Below, piece by piece: positions 2,788-49,596 of a stretch of 64,000 nucleotides of DNA. Source of the stretch: an uncultured Candidatus Saccharibacteria bacterium (GTDB lineage: Bacteria > Patescibacteriota > CPR2_A > CAYFQT01). The DNA is taken from positions 5,685 to 69,684 of the forward strand of contig CAYFQT010000026.1 in assembly GCA_964345445.1 (NCBI GenBank). Reading direction: 5' to 3'. Every line of letters starts with the position of its first letter. Within the stretch, counting starts at the first letter, position 1. The notes beneath the pieces are model-generated. The model saw nothing but the letters and a program-made list of their open reading frames with translations. It was not told the DNA's origin and did no database searches. A program made the translations under genes and the position numbers.

Positions 2788-2871
2788 GCCCTGGTGCTGA
2801 AACTGGTAGACAGGCGTGGTTCAGGACCACGTGCTCAAAAGAGCGTGAGAGTTCGAATCTCTCCCAGGGCA
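2788..2871 (+). tRNA. tRNA-Leu (anticodon CAG), type II with long variable arm
   Basis: Acceptor GCCCTGG/CCAGGGC with discriminator A. Anticodon loop ttCAGga, long variable arm, T-loop TTCGAAT. Confidence 0.8.
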
Positions 2872-2921
2872 TTTTGCCAAATGAAGCCAAAATAGTATAA
2901 TTGAACTAGTTCATTCAATTA

Positions 2922-3005
2922 GCCCCCGTGGCGGAACTGGCATACGCGACAGGTTGAGGGCCTGTGTCCTTTTAGGACGTACTGGTTCAAATCCAGTCGG
3001 GGGCA
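2922..3005 (+). tRNA. tRNA-Leu (anticodon GAG), type II
   Basis: Acceptor GCCCCCG/CGGGGGC with discriminator A. Anticodon loop ttGAGgg, variable-arm hairpin gtcct-ttt-aggac, T-loop TTCAAAT. Confidence 0.7.
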
Positions 3006-3043
3006 CTGCGTTAGAAGAAACCCTTCAATTATTTTATCTTTAA

Positions 3044-3117
3044 GGGTGCTTAGCTCAGTTGGTTAGAGTGACTGGTTTACATCCAGTAGGTCGGGGGTTC
3101 GAATCCCTCAGCACCCA
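3044..3117 (+). tRNA. tRNA-Val (anticodon TAC)
   Basis: GGGTGCTTAGCTCAGTTGG...cloverleaf. Anticodon loop ttTACat, T-arm GGGGGTTCGAATCCCTC, acceptor GGGTGCT/AGCACCC. Confidence 0.85.
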
Positions 3118-3137
3118 CGTCGAAACAAAATTTAAGC

Positions 3138-3165
3138 TTTCGCCCCGAAAGCTTTCGGGGCGAAA
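3138..3165. terminator. Perfect 28-nt palindrome (12-bp GC-rich stem, AGCT loop) between tRNA-Val and tRNA-Phe. Hairpin, possibly a terminator or processing site.
   Basis: TTTCGCCCCGAAAGCTTTCGGGGCGAAA equals its own reverse complement. Confidence 0.5.
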
Positions 3166-3186
3166 ATGAAAGGTTTGTTTGGACGC

Positions 3187-3262
3187 GCCGAGGTAGCTCA
3201 GGTAGTAGAGCACAGGTCTGAAAAACCTGGTGTCCCCAGTGCAAGTCTGGGCCTCGGCACCA
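3187..3262 (+). tRNA. tRNA-Phe (anticodon GAA), with encoded CCA
   Basis: Acceptor GCCGAGG/CCTCGGC + A + CCA. D-arm TAGCTCAGGTAGTAGAGC, anticodon loop ctGAAaa. The T-loop tgcaagt is atypical (G at position 55). Confidence 0.75.
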
Positions 3263-3562
3263 CGTCGAAGTTATTCCACTATACATCCTGCTTCAGCAGG
3301 CTGCACCGCTCCATAAACTTCTCCTCTTTCTACAAAATACTAAAGTATTTTGTCGAGTTGAAAAAATTCTAAAGAATTTTTGCGAAAAAGGAGCATTGCT
3401 GAAGATGGAAACAAAATTTTTGAAGAAAATTTTGTGGAATCGGAGGTTGAAAATTTTACCCGTAAAAATTCTTCAGAATTTTTACGGAAAAGGAGAAGTA
3501 AAGCGAAAATTGGAATGATTTCTTAGGAAGAAATCATAAAAATGGCAGCTTTACTTCGACGT

Positions 3563-3635
3563 GCGGGTGTAGCTCAGTTGATAGAGCATCTGCTTGCCAT
3601 GCAGAAGGTCGTGGGTTTAAGTCCCATCACCCGCT
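3563..3635 (+). tRNA. tRNA-Gly (anticodon GCC)
   Basis: GCGGGTGTAGCTCAGTTGATAGAGC. Anticodon loop ttGCCat, discriminator U as expected for Gly. The overlapping ORF 3542-3817 translates the tRNA (AGVAQLIEH... artefact). Confidence 0.85.
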
Positions 3636-3817
3636 TCGTCGGAATAAACTTCCAGCTTTTGCGAATTTGTTTTACAAATTTGCTACCACTTTCAGTTTAT
3701 TCCTCCTCTTTCGCAAAAAATCTGACGATTTTTTGCAAGACAAAAACATTAGGTGACCTATTTTTCCTGTTTATAAGCGGGGCAGGGTCCGCGGTCTGCC
3801 TGCCCGCCAAAGCCTAG

Positions 3818-3889
3818 GGCCTCGTGACCGAGTGGTTTAGGTAGCGGTCTGCAAAACCGCGTACGGCGGTTCAAATCCGCCCGAGGCCT
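3818..3889 (+). tRNA. tRNA-Cys (anticodon GCA)
   Basis: Acceptor GGCCTCG/CGAGGCC with discriminator U (Cys-typical). Anticodon loop ctGCAaa, T-arm GGCGGTTCAAATCCGCC. Confidence 0.8.
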
Positions 3890-3894
3890 CTGAC

Positions 3895-3990
3895 ACTGGC
3901 AGGCGGGCCTGCCCGCTAATGCAAGCATAGCGTTGCAGGCGGGCAAAACCGAGTACAGCATGCGAATCCGCTCCAGGCCTCCGTAATTAA
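3895..3990 (+). pseudogene. Degenerate tRNA-Cys-like 3' half (tRNA remnant) fused to a GC-rich dispersed motif
   Basis: gcaaaaccgagtacagcatgcgaatccgctccaggcctcc is about 70% identical to the 3' half of the upstream tRNA-Cys but does not form a cloverleaf. Confidence 0.4.
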
Positions 3991-4019
3991 CTCATCTAAG
4001 GCATAATCAGAAAAAATAA

Positions 4020-4103
4020 GGGCGAGTGGCGGAATTGGTATACGCGCGACACTTAAAATGTCGTCCTGTTTACAGGGTGAGGGTTCGAGTCCCTCCTTGC
4101 CCA
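4020..4103 (+). tRNA. tRNA-Leu (anticodon TAA), type II
   Basis: Acceptor GGGCGAG/CTTGCCC with discriminator A. Anticodon stem CGACA/TGTCG with loop ctTAAaa, long variable arm, T-arm GAGGGTTCGAGTCCCTC. Confidence 0.8.
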
Positions 4104-26384: not shown

Positions 26385-27007
26385 TGGATCTATTAGAGAT
26401 TTTTGAAAAAGAGCAAATAAAAAATAAACCCCTTCAAATAAATCCTGGAGATAAAATTAAAGTTTACCAGAAAATTCAAGAAGGGGGGAAGACTCGAACC
26501 CAAAGTTTTGAGGGTATTGTTATTCGGAAAAGAGTAATGAAGACAGCTAGGGCTAATTTTACTGTGCGGAAGATCGTTTCAGGCATTGGTGTAGAAAAAA
26601 CATTTTTTATTCATTCTCCTAATATTACTAAGATTAAAATTACAAAAAAAGGAAAGACAAGAAGAGCTAAACTTTATTATATTAGAGAAAGGCGGGGTAG
26701 AGCTGCAAAAATGAGAGAAAAAGAGGGGGAATTAAGTGAGTGGGAAATTGCAACAACAGAGCCGGCAAAACAGCCCACTGAAACGCCAAAAGAGAAAATT
26801 GAAGAAAAACCAGAAGTTAAGGAAAAATCCCAAAAACCCTTCTCCACTAAAACTTCAGAGGGCAGGGTAGAAAAGGAAGGGTCAAAAGAGAAGAAAAAAG
26901 AAGAGATTAAGGATGAAAAGAAAGAATCAAAACAAAAAGAGACAAAAACATCCTCTTCTGCTGATATAACTTCAAAGGATAAAAAGAAAAGAAAGGAAAA
27001 ATCCTAA
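26385..27007 (+). CDS. rplS: 50S ribosomal protein L19 with long K/E-rich C-terminal extension
   Basis: The L19 core (...GDKIKVYQKIQEGGKTRTQSFEGIVIRKR...FTVRKI..GIGVEKTF..HSP.I..I) ends near R134 and about 90 aa of KE-rich tail follow. Start ATG 26385 with GAGG RBS. A TTGCCT-17-TATAAA promoter lies at 26263-26295. Confidence 0.85.
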
Positions 27008-27210
27008 CAGGACTAAAAATAAATCTGACATATAAAATGGCTCAATGGAGCCATTTTATTTTATATTATATTTTATTTCAAAAAAAGTATTGACAGTGGG
27101 AAAAGTTCTTTGTTAGTATATAATCTCTGGTTACTTTTTTAAGTAACTAACTATAGTGTTGTACTTTTATAATTTAATATTTATTTGGAAAAGAGGTGTA
27201 AAAGAAAGTA

Positions 27211-28278
27211 ATGAAATCTAAAAATTCAGTATTTGAACCTTCTGTTGGTATTGTTATTCCTGCCTATAATGAAGAAAAGACTATTGCTACTGTTTTAGAA
27301 AGCATATTCAGTCAAACTAGATTACCTGATCAAATAATTGTGGTTGATGATTGTTCAGAAGATATGACAGGAAAAATAGCCAAGAGTTATAAAGGAGTTG
27401 AGGTAATTCGACCTGAGGTCAATCAAGGAACTAAAGCCCAAGCTCAGAATATTGCTTTGCCTTATGTTAAGACAGAAATTGTTATTACTATTGATGGTGA
27501 TACTATTCTAGCCCTTAATGCTATAGAAGAAATTCTTAATGCTTTTAAAGGTGAAAAACCCGCAGTCGCAGCTTGTGGTTTTATTGTTCCTAAGAAGATT
27601 AGAACTGTTTGGGAAAAGGGGCGGTTTATAGAATATCTTTTTGGTATAACACTTTATAAGAATATTCAAAAAGAATATAATGCAATAATGGTTTGTTCTG
27701 GTTGTTTTTCAGCTTTTAATACTAAAAAATTAATAGATCATGGAGGTTTTCAAAAGAGAACAATGGCTGAAGATATGGATCTTACTTGGGGTTATTTGGC
27801 AAGAAAAGAGAAAGTAGCATATGTTCCTAATGCTATTTGTTATCCTATAGAGCCAGAAACTTTTCCAATTTTTAAAGCTCAAATTCGAAGATGGTATCGG
27901 TCTTTCTTTCAAAATATTGCCATTCACAAAAGGAATATTTTTACTTTTAAAAATCCTGTTCTTAGTCTAATTATTTTAACAGGATTATTGGATGGAACGA
28001 TTTTTCCTTTAATGTTTGGAACTTCTATTTATTTCTCTATTCACTCAAAATCTTTTATGGTCAAATTGATTTGTATATGGATACTTTTTGATTTAATAGT
28101 TGTTCTAATTCCCATACTGATAAAAGGGTATAAAATTAAGAAATTAAAAGTTGCAGTATTATCTATTCCTTTTTTCCTTTTTGTCACCAGATGGGTAAAT
28201 TCTTTTTTCTTTTTTGAATCATTTATAAAGGAATGGATTTTAAAAAAACGTTTAAGTGTTTGGGAAAAAGGACATTGA
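27211..28278 (+). CDS. family 2 glycosyltransferase (membrane)
   Basis: GT-A motifs VIPAYNEE, VVDDCS and DGD. C-terminal TM helices. Confidence 0.75.
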   Translation: MKSKNSVFEPSVGIVIPAYNEEKTIATVLESIFSQTRLPDQIIVVDDCSEDMTGKIAKSYKGVEVIRPEVNQGTKAQAQNIALPYVKTEIVITIDGDTILALNAIEEILNAFKGEKPAVAACGFIVPKKIRTVWEKGRFIEYLFGITLYKNIQKEYNAIMVCSGCFSAFNTKKLIDHGGFQKRTMAEDMDLTWGYLARKEKVAYVPNAICYPIEPETFPIFKAQIRRWYRSFFQNIAIHKRNIFTFKNPVLSLIILTGLLDGTIFPLMFGTSIYFSIHSKSFMVKLICIWILFDLIVVLIPILIKGYKIKKLKVAVLSIPFFLFVTRWVNSFFFFESFIKEWILKKRLSVWEKGH

Positions 28279-28987
28279 TATTAGAGGAGGGGTAGGAGAT
28301 TTGAAAGATTATAAAAAGAGATTTTCTGAATTGGATACACTAAAAAAGATAATCTATCTTTTTGGTTTGTTTGTAATAATATTAAGTTTTGGTTTTTTGG
28401 CAACTGGTGGCTATTTGTTCTATAAATATCCTTATCAGAATTACCTAGTCAGTAAAAGGAATGAGAGATCTTTAAAAAAATTTAATGAGGGCCTTCAGAA
28501 CAAAACTGTTAAGGGAATTAATGAATTTAGAATAATAAAAAAGAAAAAGATTTCTCTTCAATTTCCCTACAAGATGGAGATTCCGAAGATTAATCTTAAT
28601 TGGTTGGTTTATCCTACAGAATATGAAGAAAAATTCCCTTATGGTATTAATAAAAAGTATTTGGATTCATATGGCGCTTGTCACTATCCTGAAACTTGTT
28701 TACCTGGTGAGACTGGAGTTTGTGCTATAGCTGGTCATCGGACAACTTATGGTTCACCCTTTCGTAATATTGACAAATTGGTGAAAGGGGACAAAGTCAT
28801 CTTAAGCAAAGAATCAATTGTTTATACTTATAAAGTTTTGGAGGTAAAGATTATTTCGGCTGATTATATAAAGATTTTAGATCCACCTGAAGAAGAAAAA
28901 TCCTTTCTTGTTTTAACTACATGTCATCCTCCTGGTTCAGCCAAAAAACGTATTGTTGTAATAGCTGTAATGGAAGGAGATGGGTGA
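28256..28987 (+). CDS. sortase (transpeptidase)
   Basis: N-terminal TM anchor. Catalytic His in AIAGHRTTYG, TLxTC-type Cys in LVLTTCHPPGS, and the downstream Arg. The true start may be the TTG at 28301 (AGGAGG RBS). Confidence 0.8.
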   Translation: MFGKKDIDIRGGVGDLKDYKKRFSELDTLKKIIYLFGLFVIILSFGFLATGGYLFYKYPYQNYLVSKRNERSLKKFNEGLQNKTVKGINEFRIIKKKKISLQFPYKMEIPKINLNWLVYPTEYEEKFPYGINKKYLDSYGACHYPETCLPGETGVCAIAGHRTTYGSPFRNIDKLVKGDKVILSKESIVYTYKVLEVKIISADYIKILDPPEEEKSFLVLTTCHPPGSAKKRIVVIAVMEGDG

Positions 28988-28989
28988 GT

Positions 28990-30177
28990 ATGGAAAAGAT
29001 TTCCCGTAGGAATTTGTTGATTTTTATTGTTGCTTTTCTTTTACTAACTTTTGTATTAGCAATAGTAGGGTTGTATTATTTTGTAGGTAATTCAAAAAAA
29101 TCATCTACAAAAATTGACTCAAAATCAGAAGATAATTTAGACAAAGAAGCTTGGGAAAGATTACCAGCTCCAAAGGTGATTTTAGGTCGTTCAAAAATTA
29201 TAGTGCCAAAGAAAGCACAAGTGGTAACCCAAGTGGATAGAGTATTAAGAGATGTTAATTGGAAAGATTCGCCTTTTAACCAAGAAGTGTCTGTTGATAC
29301 TCGGCCAGAATCTCCTGATCAAATAGTTCCTTATATGGAGGGAGCAAGAATAAAGGAGTTGATGAAATATTCTCAAATTGAGGTGATACCGCTTGGTAAC
29401 ACTAAAGCAGTTAAAATTGATGAAGATTATTATGCTGCTGATGCCGAAAGTGACTATAAGTTTAAAATTGACCCTTCTAAATTAGACTATCCTTCAGTAA
29501 TCAAAGAAGATAATTCAGTAATTTTACCTGATACTCATGGTTTTAATTCTATAGCTGGTTTGACAGCAGGACTTCAACCTAAACCTTATTTGGCAGTTGC
29601 TTGTATGGATTTGCCTTCTAAAGCTGATGCTACTTTATATTTAGCTGAAAGAGGTATTAATTGCTATGCTCCTTGTGATCGTTTTGGATCTCAAATCTTA
29701 GGTTACAATAATAATTATGAAATTAAAGGTACTATTATTGGTACTGCTCCAGTAAAAAAGCATAAAGAAGAGGCAGTAATTGGCGACCAACCTTTAGCAT
29801 TTTCTACTTCGGAGTCTATCTGTGTTCAATATACTGATAAAGGTTATCCAGATCAATATTGTGATACTCCTTGGCGTTATTTTGAAGCTTTGAATAAGAA
29901 ATATAAGCTAGATTTGGATTTGATTAAAGTTAATGCCAATGTTGGAGAAGCAGACAAAGTTGTAAAAAAGGCTAAAAAAAACAAAATCAATACTATTGCT
30001 GTTAGAGTTTCTGAAGAAGAAGATGCTAAAGCGGTCAGAAAATGGCTTAAGGAAAATGATTATCATAAAGCTATTCTTTTTCATTCAGCTCCTTATGAAC
30101 CTGGATATAAATTATTTTTTGAATTTCCTGAAAAGGTGACATTTGGAGATTTAGATCCTCAAGTTATACCGGAATAA
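28990..30177 (+). CDS. secreted/membrane-anchored protein, candidate sortase substrate. Its sorting signal is displaced to the next frame.
   Basis: RBS GGAAGGAG before ATG 28990. N-terminal signal/TM (LLIFIVAFLLLTFVLAIVGLYYF). It ends ...DPQVIPE* directly upstream of the LPITG mini-ORF. Confidence 0.55.
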   Translation: MEKISRRNLLIFIVAFLLLTFVLAIVGLYYFVGNSKKSSTKIDSKSEDNLDKEAWERLPAPKVILGRSKIIVPKKAQVVTQVDRVLRDVNWKDSPFNQEVSVDTRPESPDQIVPYMEGARIKELMKYSQIEVIPLGNTKAVKIDEDYYAADAESDYKFKIDPSKLDYPSVIKEDNSVILPDTHGFNSIAGLTAGLQPKPYLAVACMDLPSKADATLYLAERGINCYAPCDRFGSQILGYNNNYEIKGTIIGTAPVKKHKEEAVIGDQPLAFSTSESICVQYTDKGYPDQYCDTPWRYFEALNKKYKLDLDLIKVNANVGEADKVVKKAKKNKINTIAVRVSEEEDAKAVRKWLKENDYHKAILFHSAPYEPGYKLFFEFPEKVTFGDLDPQVIPE

Positions 30178-30191
30178 AGGAGGTGCAGAAA

Positions 30192-30314
30192 GTGGATCGT
30201 TTACCCATAACTGGTGGTTTTTCTGTTGGTAGTTTGATTATTGTAGCAATACTTGGAATAGGAGCTCTATGTATAGCCGCAGGGCGTAGATTGAGAGCTT
30301 TTGCTAAAAAATAA
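30192..30314 (+). pseudogene. Orphan LPXTG cell-wall sorting signal (LPITG + hydrophobic segment + RRLR tail). Probably the frameshifted C-terminus of 28990-30177.
   Basis: Translation VDRLPITGGFSVGSLIIVAILGIGALCIAAGRRLRAFAKK*. The -1 frame is open from 30132 across the A4 run at 30131-30134. An AGGAGG-8nt-GTG context is also present. Confidence 0.55.
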
Positions 30315-30339
30315 AGAAAACTGAATAATATTTATCGTA

Positions 30340-30425
30340 AAGAACGTGGAATTTCGCATCAAAGTAGAAAGTTTTAAATCTCACTCGAGGTTTTCTACTA
30401 ATACTTTGATGCGCCATGTTCTTTT
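30340..30425 (+). terminator. long imperfect hairpin with T-run (rho-independent terminator)
   Basis: GAACGTGGAATTTCGCATCAAAGTAGAAA...TTTCTACTAATACTTTGATGCGCCATGTTC followed by TTTTTATATAT. Confidence 0.55.
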
Positions 30426-30541
30426 TATATATTTTTATAAATTAAATTTGACAAATCAAACTGAGCTTGACAAACAATTCTTGATATAATATATTTAGAT
30501 ATCCTGATAAAATTTGGGAAAATTTGCACTTTAAAAAGGTG

Positions 30542-30721
30542 ATGAAAAAAATGAGTCAGAAAAAGTCAAAAGAAGAAGAAATTTGCCCAACTTGCAGAGG
30601 TAAAGGAAAAATTAATATTGGAATTGGTAGAATTCCTGGACATACCCATTTTCATTCTATAGGTACTAAAGAATGTCCTGATTGTAAAGGTACAGGAAAA
30701 GTGCAAAAAGAGAAATCTTAA
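30542..30721 (+). CDS. mini DnaJ-type zinc-finger protein (two CxxCxGxG repeats)
   Basis: CPTCRGKGKI and CPDCKGTGKV. Start uncertain (30524, 30542 or 30551). Confidence 0.4.
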   Translation: MKKMSQKKSKEEEICPTCRGKGKINIGIGRIPGHTHFHSIGTKECPDCKGTGKVQKEKS

Positions 30722-30725
30722 GAAG

Positions 30726-30956
30726 TTGAAGAATATGACAACAATAGATTCTTATTCTAGTCCTAATACTAAATGTTCTTATCTATATTGTAGTCGTGAG
30801 TTTAAAAATGGTGAGAGAATTCTACTTTCAGAAGATGGAGAAACTTTTTGCTTTGATAGAATATGTGGCAATCTTCAATCAGTAAAGGAGTCAAAAACAG
30901 TACATATAGATAGAGTAAGATTTTTTCAGGAAAATATTGAGAAAGGAATGATTTAA
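30726..30956 (+). CDS. small zinc-ribbon-like protein
   Basis: C..YC...(24 aa)...C....C spacing. 76 aa. Tightly packed with neighbours. Confidence 0.3.
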   Translation: MKNMTTIDSYSSPNTKCSYLYCSREFKNGERILLSEDGETFCFDRICGNLQSVKESKTVHIDRVRFFQENIEKGMI

Positions 30957-30957
30957 A

Positions 30958-31311
30958 ATGAAAGATGGTTGTGAGAAAGGATATGGAAAGCATTGTTTTA
31001 AATGTAATTCAAAAAATCGTCTGTTTTCTTTAGTAAATACAGGGGCAGGGATGGATACAGAAATGTTAGAAGATTTTGGTAAGAGACAAATTGCAATAAA
31101 TTGTTCGTGTCTTGAAGGTTATTTAGTTTTAGAACTAAATAAGAAAGAAATTTATAAATTAAGTAATAGTAAAGTAAGGGAGTTAAGTGAAGAGATAGTT
31201 AATAATAAATTAATAAAAGCAGACGATGTTCAGTCATACCTTGATAAATATGGAGATAAGGTATCAATTGAGGTTCTGCAGCCTTGTAGAATCTTTCCAC
31301 CTTATCCCTAG
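30958..31311 (+). CDS. small cysteine-containing hypothetical protein
   Basis: MKDGCEKGYGKHCFKCNS...INCSC. 117 aa. Start overlaps the previous stop (ATAA...ATG). A terminator hairpin at 31338-31389 (GAGACCC...GGGTCTC + T6) follows. Confidence 0.35.
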   Translation: MKDGCEKGYGKHCFKCNSKNRLFSLVNTGAGMDTEMLEDFGKRQIAINCSCLEGYLVLELNKKEIYKLSNSKVRELSEEIVNNKLIKADDVQSYLDKYGDKVSIEVLQPCRIFPPYP

Positions 31312-49506: not shown

Positions 49507-49596
49507 GCGGGCGTGGCGGAATTTGGAAGACGCGCGTGGCTTAGGACCACGTTCCCATTTATGGGATTGGAGGTTCAAGTCCTCCCGCCCGCACCA
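49507..49596 (+). tRNA. tRNA-Leu (anticodon TAG), type II, with encoded CCA
   Basis: Acceptor GCGGGCG/CGCCCGC + A + CCA. Anticodon stem CGTGG/CCACG with loop ctTAGga, variable hairpin CCCAT-tt-ATGGG, T-loop TTCAAGT. Confidence 0.85.

Follow-up and report, generated by a model that had tools for sequence, protein, structure and literature searches.

We describe a four-gene operon in a 64,000-nucleotide (nt) stretch of DNA from an uncultured Candidatus Saccharibacteria bacterium (the window), whose last gene, of only 40 codons, is very probably a real stand-alone gene and not the frameshifted tail of the gene before it. The operon (27211-30314) comprises, in this order, a family-2 glycosyltransferase (GT2), a sortase, a 395-amino-acid (aa) membrane-anchored protein here called FAM, and the short gene, referred to below as the mini-gene and its product as the mini. 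Window positions 27000-31000 were read together with their open reading frames (ORFs), and in our interpretation the mini-gene is the last cistron of this operon and its product an independently translated micro-protein. As an explanation of the locus as a whole we favour, with reasonable though limited confidence, a real micro-protein gene that encodes a sorting signal without a passenger, within a sortase role linked to GT2 and FAM.

The coordinates of the features are given in Table 1. The mini consists of (formyl)Met-Asp-Arg, LPITG followed by a further Gly, a hydrophobic segment of about 22 residues, RRLRAFAKK and the stop. It thereby shows the tripartite pattern of a sorting signal, with LPITG, then GFSVGSLIIVAILGIGALCIAAG, then RRLRAFAKK at the very C terminus. 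It has neither a secreted passenger nor an N-terminal signal peptide, M-D-R alone preceding the motif. In all six frames of the 64-kb window, the mini was the only candidate combining L[PA]xT[GASN] with a sorting-signal tail. It is read in the -1 frame with respect to FAM; this frame opens at 30132, behind a TGA at 30129-30131 that lies 20 codons before the start. Translational coupling is implied by the Shine-Dalgarno (SD) sequence, which shares bases with the stop codon of FAM; a second in-frame GTG, at 30183, falls on the SD sequence itself, and its use is unlikely. A preliminary description of this DNA had already recorded the 40 codons, the LPITG, the hydrophobic stretch, the RRLRAFAKK and the open -1 frame, all of which stand, with the gap to FAM now counted as 14 bases. 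It had offered three explanations, and the third, a stand-alone signal initiated from the AGGAGG-GTG context (AGGAGG 30178-30183, 8 nt upstream), is the one that fits the evidence.

Table 1. Features of the operon and its flanks, in positions of the window.
Feature	Position	Strand	Remarks
Intrinsic-terminator-like hairpin	27032..27059	+	12-bp stem, then T-run; ends the upstream rplS (L19) unit
Sigma-70-like promoter candidate, TTGACA-18-TAGTAT with TG extension	27090..27119	+	consensus match only
GT2, 355 aa, membrane-embedded processive-synthase type	27211..28278	+	Pfam and motifs
Membrane-anchored sortase, 228 aa from TTG 28301	28301..28987	+	ORF open 28256-28987; triad H146 / C208 / R217
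FAM, 395 aa	ATG 28990 to stop 30177	+	full length; C terminus matches family
A4 run, proposed indel or phase-variation site	30131..30134	+	inside conserved FAM codons, E-K of FPEKVTFGDL
SD sequence of the mini-gene, AAGGAGG	30177..30183	+	overlaps FAM stop; 8 nt to GTG 30192; same spacing in L001
Mini-gene, 40 codons plus stop	GTG 30192..30314	+	(M)DRLPITGGFSVGSLIIVAILGIGALCIAAGRRLRAFAKK; starts 14 bases after FAM stop
Long hairpin, 86-nt stem-loop, then UUUUUAUAUAU	30339..30430	+	probable operon terminator

The closest public relative of the operon, locus L001 (contig SDBS01000068.1), is fully syntenic, with proteins 85-91 % identical to those of the window. It keeps the FAM stop, the AAGGAGG, the GTG and an intact 40-codon ORF (VDRLPVTGG…RRKLKTVVRK), for which annotation missed the gene call. 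The two mini-genes differ at 18 of 123 nt and their products at 13 of 40 aa, and the nucleotide identity of 85 % compares with 91-93 % for the neighbouring genes. Retained through these changes are the LPxTG motif, an uncharged hydrophobic span and at least four K/R in the tail. When random substitutions were simulated at the same density, all the features survived in 0.7 % of trials (P≈0.007). A 40-aa protein at NCBI is 98 % identical to the mini, and near-identical independent contigs carry the 40-aa gene.

These comparisons bear on the possibility that the mini-gene is a chance ORF or the decaying, functionless remnant of an LPXTG gene or, in a variant, an extension reached from FAM by -1 ribosomal frameshifting. 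Such an origin would agree with an ORF that is short, diverges faster than its neighbours and was missed by gene callers in L001. It is at odds with the retention of every feature in the simulation, with recurrence in six lineages (the SD sequence having been checked in five), with an LPFGG subtype that is 69 % identical over 26 aa at deep divergence, with the position of the terminator downstream of the mini-gene, and with the composition of the overlap 30132-30177, which on reading of the sequence holds no X XXY YYZ slippery heptamer. We regard it as very improbable.

The preliminary description had also pointed out that one extra A in the A4 run would join the frames of FAM and the mini, which is geometrically correct. 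FAM and the mini could then be a single LPXTG-anchored protein, split in the window by a one-nucleotide error or by slippage at the run. The C terminus of FAM contradicts this: …FPEKVTFGDLDPQVIPE* matches the family through the stop, and the residues after the tract, VTFGDLDPQVIPE, are the family's own C terminus. Those listed homologues that lack an extra C-terminal domain or tail end in the motif …LFFxFPxQT[ST]FGDLxPxIxx-stop, as does FAM in the window with …FFEFPEKVTFGDLDPQVIPE-stop, and an LPXTG tail or sorting signal was found in none of the 120 FAM homologues listed. An extra A would change the frame ahead of TFGDL, and this motif, shared by the whole family, would be lost; the frame in which FAM now reads is therefore the native one. 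In L001 the site reads GAAAGG where the window has GAAAAG (A3, with K changed to R), and the split two-gene layout is kept. The independent contigs mentioned above and the mini-gene's own SD sequence and start codon argue in the same direction. In other lineages the minis follow the sortase, or lie between GT2 and either FAM or the sortase, away from the FAM 3' end, and so are not detached FAM tails.

Three mechanisms were rejected on this basis. An assembly or sequencing indel in the A4 run conflicts with the family C termini, with GAAAGG in L001 and with the SD sequence of the mini-gene. A phase-variable homopolymer switch conflicts with L001, where the tract is not retained and yet the genes are equally split. 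Programmed -1 ribosomal frameshifting conflicts with the family C termini, the L001 sequence and the lack of a slippery heptamer. Judged from the sequences, all three appear very unlikely, and that FAM and the mini form one split protein is extremely improbable. The first two options of the preliminary description are thereby set aside: an inserted A would replace the conserved TFGDLxP, and the closest relative maintains the split arrangement without an A4 run. Comparison of orthologous loci, namely L001 and the 120 listed homologues, likewise showed no fusion of FAM to an LPITG signal.

The ends of the transcription unit are compatible with a mini-gene inside the operon. The only strong terminator-like structure, the hairpin at 30339-30430, lies 3' of the mini-gene and not 3' of FAM. 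Its folding energy is -38.8 kcal/mol (z = -8.25), none of 200 shuffled sequences folded as well, and it is kept in L001, where the substitutions preserve pairing as G-U. It is much longer than typical terminators and is followed by a U-run, and Rfam gave no match in the operon, this hairpin included. At the other end, the hairpin at 27032..27059 forms the 5' boundary of the operon. Consensus matches such as the promoter candidate at 27090..27119 are equally frequent in shuffled sequence; a role for it is suggested by its position between this terminator and the GT2 start.

Homologues of the mini were sought directly with a 43-aa peptide, by word-indexed searches and by an exhaustive phmmer search against 1.84 billion representatives, and the near-identical 40-aa protein alone was returned. 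Because short transmembrane (TM) peptides are beyond the reach of sequence searches, analogues were found through gene neighbourhoods. We scanned 82 FAM loci, and others added later, with a sortase hidden Markov model and a mini-ORF rule (LPx[TG]G preceded by a start within 10 codons, a total length of 30-60 aa, a hydrophobic window). In every FAM locus with a sortase there is a mini-ORF of 40-47 aa, with LPx[TG]G and a TM segment, beside the sortase, GT2 or FAM; these loci come from five lineages (window/L001/L087, L088, L106/L107, L113/L114 and L169). Besides the lineage of the window, five lineages have equivalent ORFs of 41-52 aa with LPATGG, LPYTG or LPFGG at the flanks of GT2/FAM, and in four of these a sortase is adjacent.

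Gene order and base composition vary among these lineages. The order GT2-FAM-sortase-mini is found in L088 (G+C fraction 0.40; mini MPYQLPFGGLSTLIALAIRSAKWLGGILVVIGVTIYLFLKKRIKKTE) and in L106/L107 (0.65-0.68; mini (V/M)AYQLPFGG…). L113/L114 (0.46) have GT2-mini-sortase with FAM convergent (mini MYGLPYTGHSFLAHLVVIIAAQIRNIYSFFKSGILSHCSQK), the mini thus being upstream of the sortase in L113, and L086/L101 (0.43) have GT2-mini-FAM, where the mini, MYNGAALPATGGIGVGVV…, is 52 aa long and had already been called as a gene. L169 (0.62), one further FAM homologue looked up as a prospective test, also contains the module and a mini, in the order LCP-GT2-FAM-sortase-mini (LCP, LytR-CpsA-Psr); its mini, MPYNLPFGGLSTALALAIKTGKWVGALMAAFGATLLALGLRSKR, is 44 aa long and again already called as a gene. 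A strong SD sequence stands 5-8 nt before the minis in the four other lineages checked, and the upstream sequence in L169, GGGAGAGGGGGTG, looks similar. The junctions are tightly coupled, with either a GTGA overlap or a stop and a start a few nucleotides apart.

The minis themselves share a layout. The motif is preceded by only 3 residues in the window and by 3-6 in the other lineages. Three of the four independent motif types have an exact LPXTG, a hydrophobic segment and a C-terminal tail containing Lys/Arg. The flank C-terminal to the hydrophobic segment carries a net charge of +1 to +6 and the N-terminal flank 0 to +2, a bias that by the positive-inside rule predicts an N-out / C-in topology; the tail is strongly basic in the lineage of the window and weaker in L086 and L113. 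Within the LPFGG subtype, which spans G+C fractions of 0.40-0.66, the four genes diverge together, with identities of 55-61 % for GT2, 52-60 % for FAM, 47-48 % for the sortase and 47-55 % for the mini. Over its first 26 aa the mini of this subtype reaches 69 % identity, and its overall identity equals or exceeds that of the adjacent sortase.

As a control, no mini-ORF of this kind was present at any of 80 Actinomycetota class E sortase loci, where the LPXTG substrates detected were 92-650 aa long. Under a stricter form of the rule, block-shuffled DNA gave about 0.4 mini-ORFs per 1.42 Mb examined. Most of the GT2-FAM loci examined have neither sortase nor mini. Both are also absent from the FAM loci P0108 and P0073.

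Two of the loci have further neighbours that should be recorded. In L169 (2648-8060), a gene for an LCP glycopolymer transferase lies upstream of the module and a glycoside hydrolase family 18 (GH18, chitinase-family) gene downstream; as far as gene content goes, these flanking genes hint at an N-acetylglucosamine-type polymer and its attachment to the wall. In L086 (20-3504) and L172, a Cys-rich surface protein with Asp-Pro repeats and LPRTGG is encoded upstream of GT2-mini-FAM. Also upstream there are a SipW-like signal peptidase (a weak Peptidase_S24 match) and two proteins with TasA/camelysin-like signal peptides, which together look like a surface-fibre gene set beside the module.

FAM was modelled with AlphaFold at a pLDDT of 92.6 (AF2). 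Residues 6-33 form an N-terminal TM helix and residues 35-55 a disordered linker, which leads to an extracytoplasmic two-lobed alpha/beta domain of about 335 aa. The fold bears only a weak likeness to type I periplasmic binding proteins and has no close solved counterpart, and no Pfam or NCBIfam family matched. The preliminary description had called it a signal-anchored protein of 396 aa ending at 30177; the membrane anchor and the end are borne out, and the length is 395 aa. We detected 329 homologues, in bacteria like those of the Candidate Phyla Radiation, in DPANN and in methanogens; Moranbacteria/Parcubacteria, Altiarchaeales, Methanobacterium and Methanothermobacter are among the groups represented. 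The alignment has 40 invariant columns, D/H/C/D/K/E/Y residues among them, which suggests that FAM may be an enzyme or a specific binder. Some homologues are fused to polysaccharide deacetylase domains (PF01522, PF10096).

FAM is very often encoded directly 3' of a PgaC/NodC-like GT2. At many metagenome loci, and in L085, a contig from Moranbacteria, FAM comes directly after a GT2 with the same architecture, and there is no sortase. Because FAM adjoins GT2 elsewhere without any sortase, it is not a dedicated sortase substrate, and the neighbourhoods make it the usual partner of GT2 instead. That label, dedicated substrate, had been given to the 395-aa protein in the preliminary description, and it is not compatible with the native family C terminus or with the lack of a sorting signal in all 120 homologues listed; the link drawn there to the GT2 gene is real, the GT2-FAM pairing being recurrent. 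This family appears to be an uncharacterised companion of a glycan synthase that is itself widespread.

The GT2 itself matches PF00535 at 1e-31, and also PF13632 and Chitin_synth_2. Its translation has the acidic motifs DD, DGD and ED, a QIRRW (QxxRW) and C-terminal TM helices, which are the marks of a processive synthase. The nearest models are PgaC/IcaA, an XrtG-associated GT2 (weak) and NodC, all of them far below their equivalog cutoffs; scores of 114.7 against 422 for PgaC_IcaA and of 65.5 against 550 for NodC give no equivalog-level identity to a named synthase.

The sortase had been recognised in the preliminary description by its His/Cys/Arg triad, a call that profile and alignment uphold: it scores 99.8 bits with Pfam Sortase (PF04203; cutoff 26.6) and 59.7 with TIGR01076 (cutoff 39.35), and H146 (in AGHRTTYG), C208 (in LTTCHP) and R217 are invariant in an alignment of 28 sequences, the window and 27 homologues. 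The triad was also read from the translations of the sortases in L088, L107, L113 and L169. Among the NCBIfam models, no sortase class threshold is reached by the window sortase; class E (NF033747) is the nearest at 99.1 bits against a cutoff of 160, which the sortases of the other modules miss with 64-79 bits. The start at TTG 28301, preceded by a strong GAGGAGGGG, is more likely than the alternative GTG 28256, which overlaps the final 23 nt of GT2. The GTG 28256 start is implied by the 243-aa database proteins P0123 and P0203, and a public version of 218 aa (P0122) spans no more than 96 % of the TTG 28301 form, so that annotations disagree.

The four-gene module was absent from the neighbourhoods of the next-closest sortases P0124, P0134, P0156 and P0200. 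The first of these (46 % identity) shares its locus, L082 (147-251), with another sortase, a protein with an AMMECR1 domain and the final part of a LAFTG-type sorting signal, a context without GT2 for the nearest relative of the sortase. A profile search of genome contigs with the sortase alignment gave Actinomycetota class E loci only, which served as a negative control, and did not return the lineage of the window.

We think it somewhat more probable than its opposite that the mini serves the sortase as a substrate without a passenger, or as a pseudo-substrate, in connection with glycan synthesis. The peptide would insert with its N terminus out and its C terminus in, following the positive-inside rule, and with an N-terminal stub of about 8 residues it would need no signal peptide to do so. 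On the outer side of the membrane, the LPITG would then be displayed to the membrane-anchored sortase of the operon. Cys208 of this sortase would cut between T and G, forming a thioacyl intermediate with the short N-terminal stub, and a TM peptide headed by GG would stay behind in the membrane. Recognition needs no passenger, since short LPXTG peptides are cut by sortase A in vitro. An amine acceptor, in the wall or on the glycan, might receive the stub, which would then act as a handle or adaptor; alternatively, the cleaved TM peptide might couple sortase activity to the GT2 synthase. The minis of some lineages may be pseudo-substrates, because LPFGG lacks the Thr. The constant association with GT2/FAM, together with the LCP and GH18 genes that flank the module in L169, points to a role in surface glycan assembly.

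Several observations weigh against a passenger-less substrate. The mini of the window scores 14.1-14.4 with TIGR01167 (LPXTG_anchor), below the cutoff of 15.9, and it matches neither PF00746 nor any other Pfam family. Three lineages carry LPFGG, without the Thr that is normal for sortase substrates, and in L086/L172 the mini occurs with GT2/FAM and no sortase within 10 kb upstream. L086 and L088 also encode large, ordinary LPXTG proteins that may be the real sortase substrates. In a crude neighbour-joining tree, the sortases of the modules fail to group as one clean clade. In the lineage of the window, the comparative depth amounts to one informative relative plus near-identical fragments. Finally, a cargo of 3 to 8 residues has no obvious use, and the biological role is one that we infer.

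An extension of the same idea would give the mini a non-protein cargo. It would act as a sorting-signal adaptor to which the GT2/FAM glycan is joined at the stub, in some lineages with the help of LCP; the glycan would be attached to the 3-to-8-residue stub, or the stub ligated to amino sugars of the polymer, and the sortase would then move the glycan-peptide to the cell wall. To our knowledge, covalent anchoring of polysaccharide is not a known sortase function. We consider this adaptor role quite unlikely.

The nearest known small protein linked to a sortase is SafA of Actinomyces, a TM protein of 52 aa whose gene comes directly after that of the housekeeping class E sortase SrtA; it shields SrtA from signal peptidase, binding through a short exoplasmic FPW motif (PMC9282373). 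The protein lies N-in / C-out; PGP (residues 10-12) precedes the TM span and FPW follows it (PMC9282373). The mini could be a comparable single-pass factor that binds, stabilises or regulates the sortase, its LPx(T)G being a binding motif or pseudo-substrate that is never cleaved. Both are micro-proteins of roughly 50 aa that cross the membrane once, are genetically linked to a class-E-like sortase, often directly behind it, and have a short conserved exoplasmic motif; the minis are of the same size as SafA, follow the sortase directly in L088, L107 and L169 and accompany sortases that are nearest to class E, and the LPFGG subtype lacks the canonical Thr. They differ from SafA in being linked to a GT2/FAM glycan module and in occurring in low-GC uncultured lineages and not in Actinobacteria.

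A regular-expression search for PGP…FPW in class E loci gave no match to SafA. A positional scan of the loci found three SafA-like ORFs of 51-58 aa directly after actinobacterial class E sortases (L034:991, L066:6404 and L070:735). These have W-rich N termini, LPGP or LPGT, a TM span and an FP motif, and are apparent SafA homologues; their N-proximal LPG loosely resembles the LPx(T)G of the minis. That SafA-like ORFs carry an N-proximal LPGP or LPGT speaks for a SafA-like role of the minis. Their charge bias, however, is the reverse of that of the minis, as is that of SafA, and the minis have no PGP or FPW-like motif. In addition, FAM lies between the sortase and the mini in the window, the mini precedes the sortase in L113 and stands beside GT2/FAM with no sortase nearby in L086, and three of the four independent motif types follow the exact LPXTG sorting-signal pattern. 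Because of the opposite charge bias, the lack of both motifs and the occurrence without a nearby sortase, we did not file the mini as SafA, and we judge a SafA-like role, the chief rival to the substrate reading, to be unlikely.

IcaD and PgaD are known small membrane partners of poly-N-acetylglucosamine synthases; they have about 100-140 aa and two TM spans, no LPXTG motif and no link to a sortase. The mini, likewise a small membrane protein and encoded in one operon with a PgaC/IcaA-like processive GT2, might be an accessory subunit of this kind, acting in polymer synthesis or export, with an LPXTG-like N terminus unrelated to the sortase. It stays with GT2/FAM in L086/L101, where no sortase is adjacent, and directly follows GT2 in L086 and L113. 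Most GT2-FAM loci lack it, so the synthase does not generally need a mini, and it is the sortase-containing FAM loci that all have one. Conservation, moreover, peaks in the N-terminal LPx(T)GG region and not in the TM span. IcaD and PgaD are larger, with two TM spans and no LPXTG or sortase link, and show no sequence match; none of the six minis (the window and five lineages) has a match above threshold in Pfam or NCBIfam, known accessory families included. An accessory subunit of the synthase therefore seems improbable to us, and we continue to prefer a passenger-less sortase substrate or pseudo-substrate.

Other sorting systems resemble the module in part. With the canonical LPXTG signal (TIGR01167 / PF00746) the mini shares the pentapeptide, a hydrophobic span of about 20 residues, a Lys/Arg tail and a place beside an intact sortase; it differs in that the whole gene is the signal, with no passenger, in a score just under the cutoff and in the LPFGG of some lineages. 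The class GN (marine/proteobacterial) sortase, TIGR03784, occurs in an operon with one target protein of several hundred residues. An operon with apparently one dedicated partner is common to both systems, the partner there being large; the window sortase scores 38 bits with this model (cutoff 158).

In Actinomyces oris, an LCP enzyme glycosylates an LAXTG protein before it is anchored by the housekeeping sortase (GspA-LcpA-SrtA; PMC6381275). There too a sortase substrate is bound up with glycan attachment, and in L169 an LCP gene lies directly upstream of the module. GspA, however, is a normal-sized secreted protein with a signal peptide, whereas the mini is a sorting signal only, and the glycan enzyme here is a processive GT2 synthase plus FAM. 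The PEP-CTERM/exosortase (EpsH) system ties a sorting transpeptidase and a short C-terminal signal to exopolysaccharide glycosyltransferase loci (PMC1569441). It is alike in this linkage of sorting to a glycan locus, and the GT2 of the window is a weak match to the model for XrtG-associated GT2. It differs in that exosortase is unrelated to sortase, recognises another motif and has targets that generally carry passenger domains.

Elsewhere in the window, three small ORFs of 65, 76 and 117 aa follow the operon at 30524-31311. The first has two CxxCxGxG (DnaJ zinc-finger-like) motifs and the other two are rich in Cys; in L001 the corresponding called genes encode 81, 77 and 119 aa. Seven tRNA genes lie within 1.3 kb at 2788-4103, and one more at 49507-49593 (Rfam).

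A search of the full-text literature gave no description of a stand-alone, passenger-less LPXTG micro-protein or of the four-gene module, and the combination of GT2, FAM, sortase and micro-protein appears to be undescribed. For genome curation, the locus of the mini-gene should not be 'repaired' as a frameshift. Genes of fewer than 50 codons can escape annotation, as the uncalled mini in L001 exemplifies. The accepted role of sortases is to anchor or polymerise proteins. A passenger-less, substrate-like peptide in a synthase module, found in lineages with G+C fractions from 0.30 to 0.68, raises the prospect that a sortase may process a tag, an adaptor or a regulator, and its recurrence in distant lineages suggests an undescribed use of sortases.

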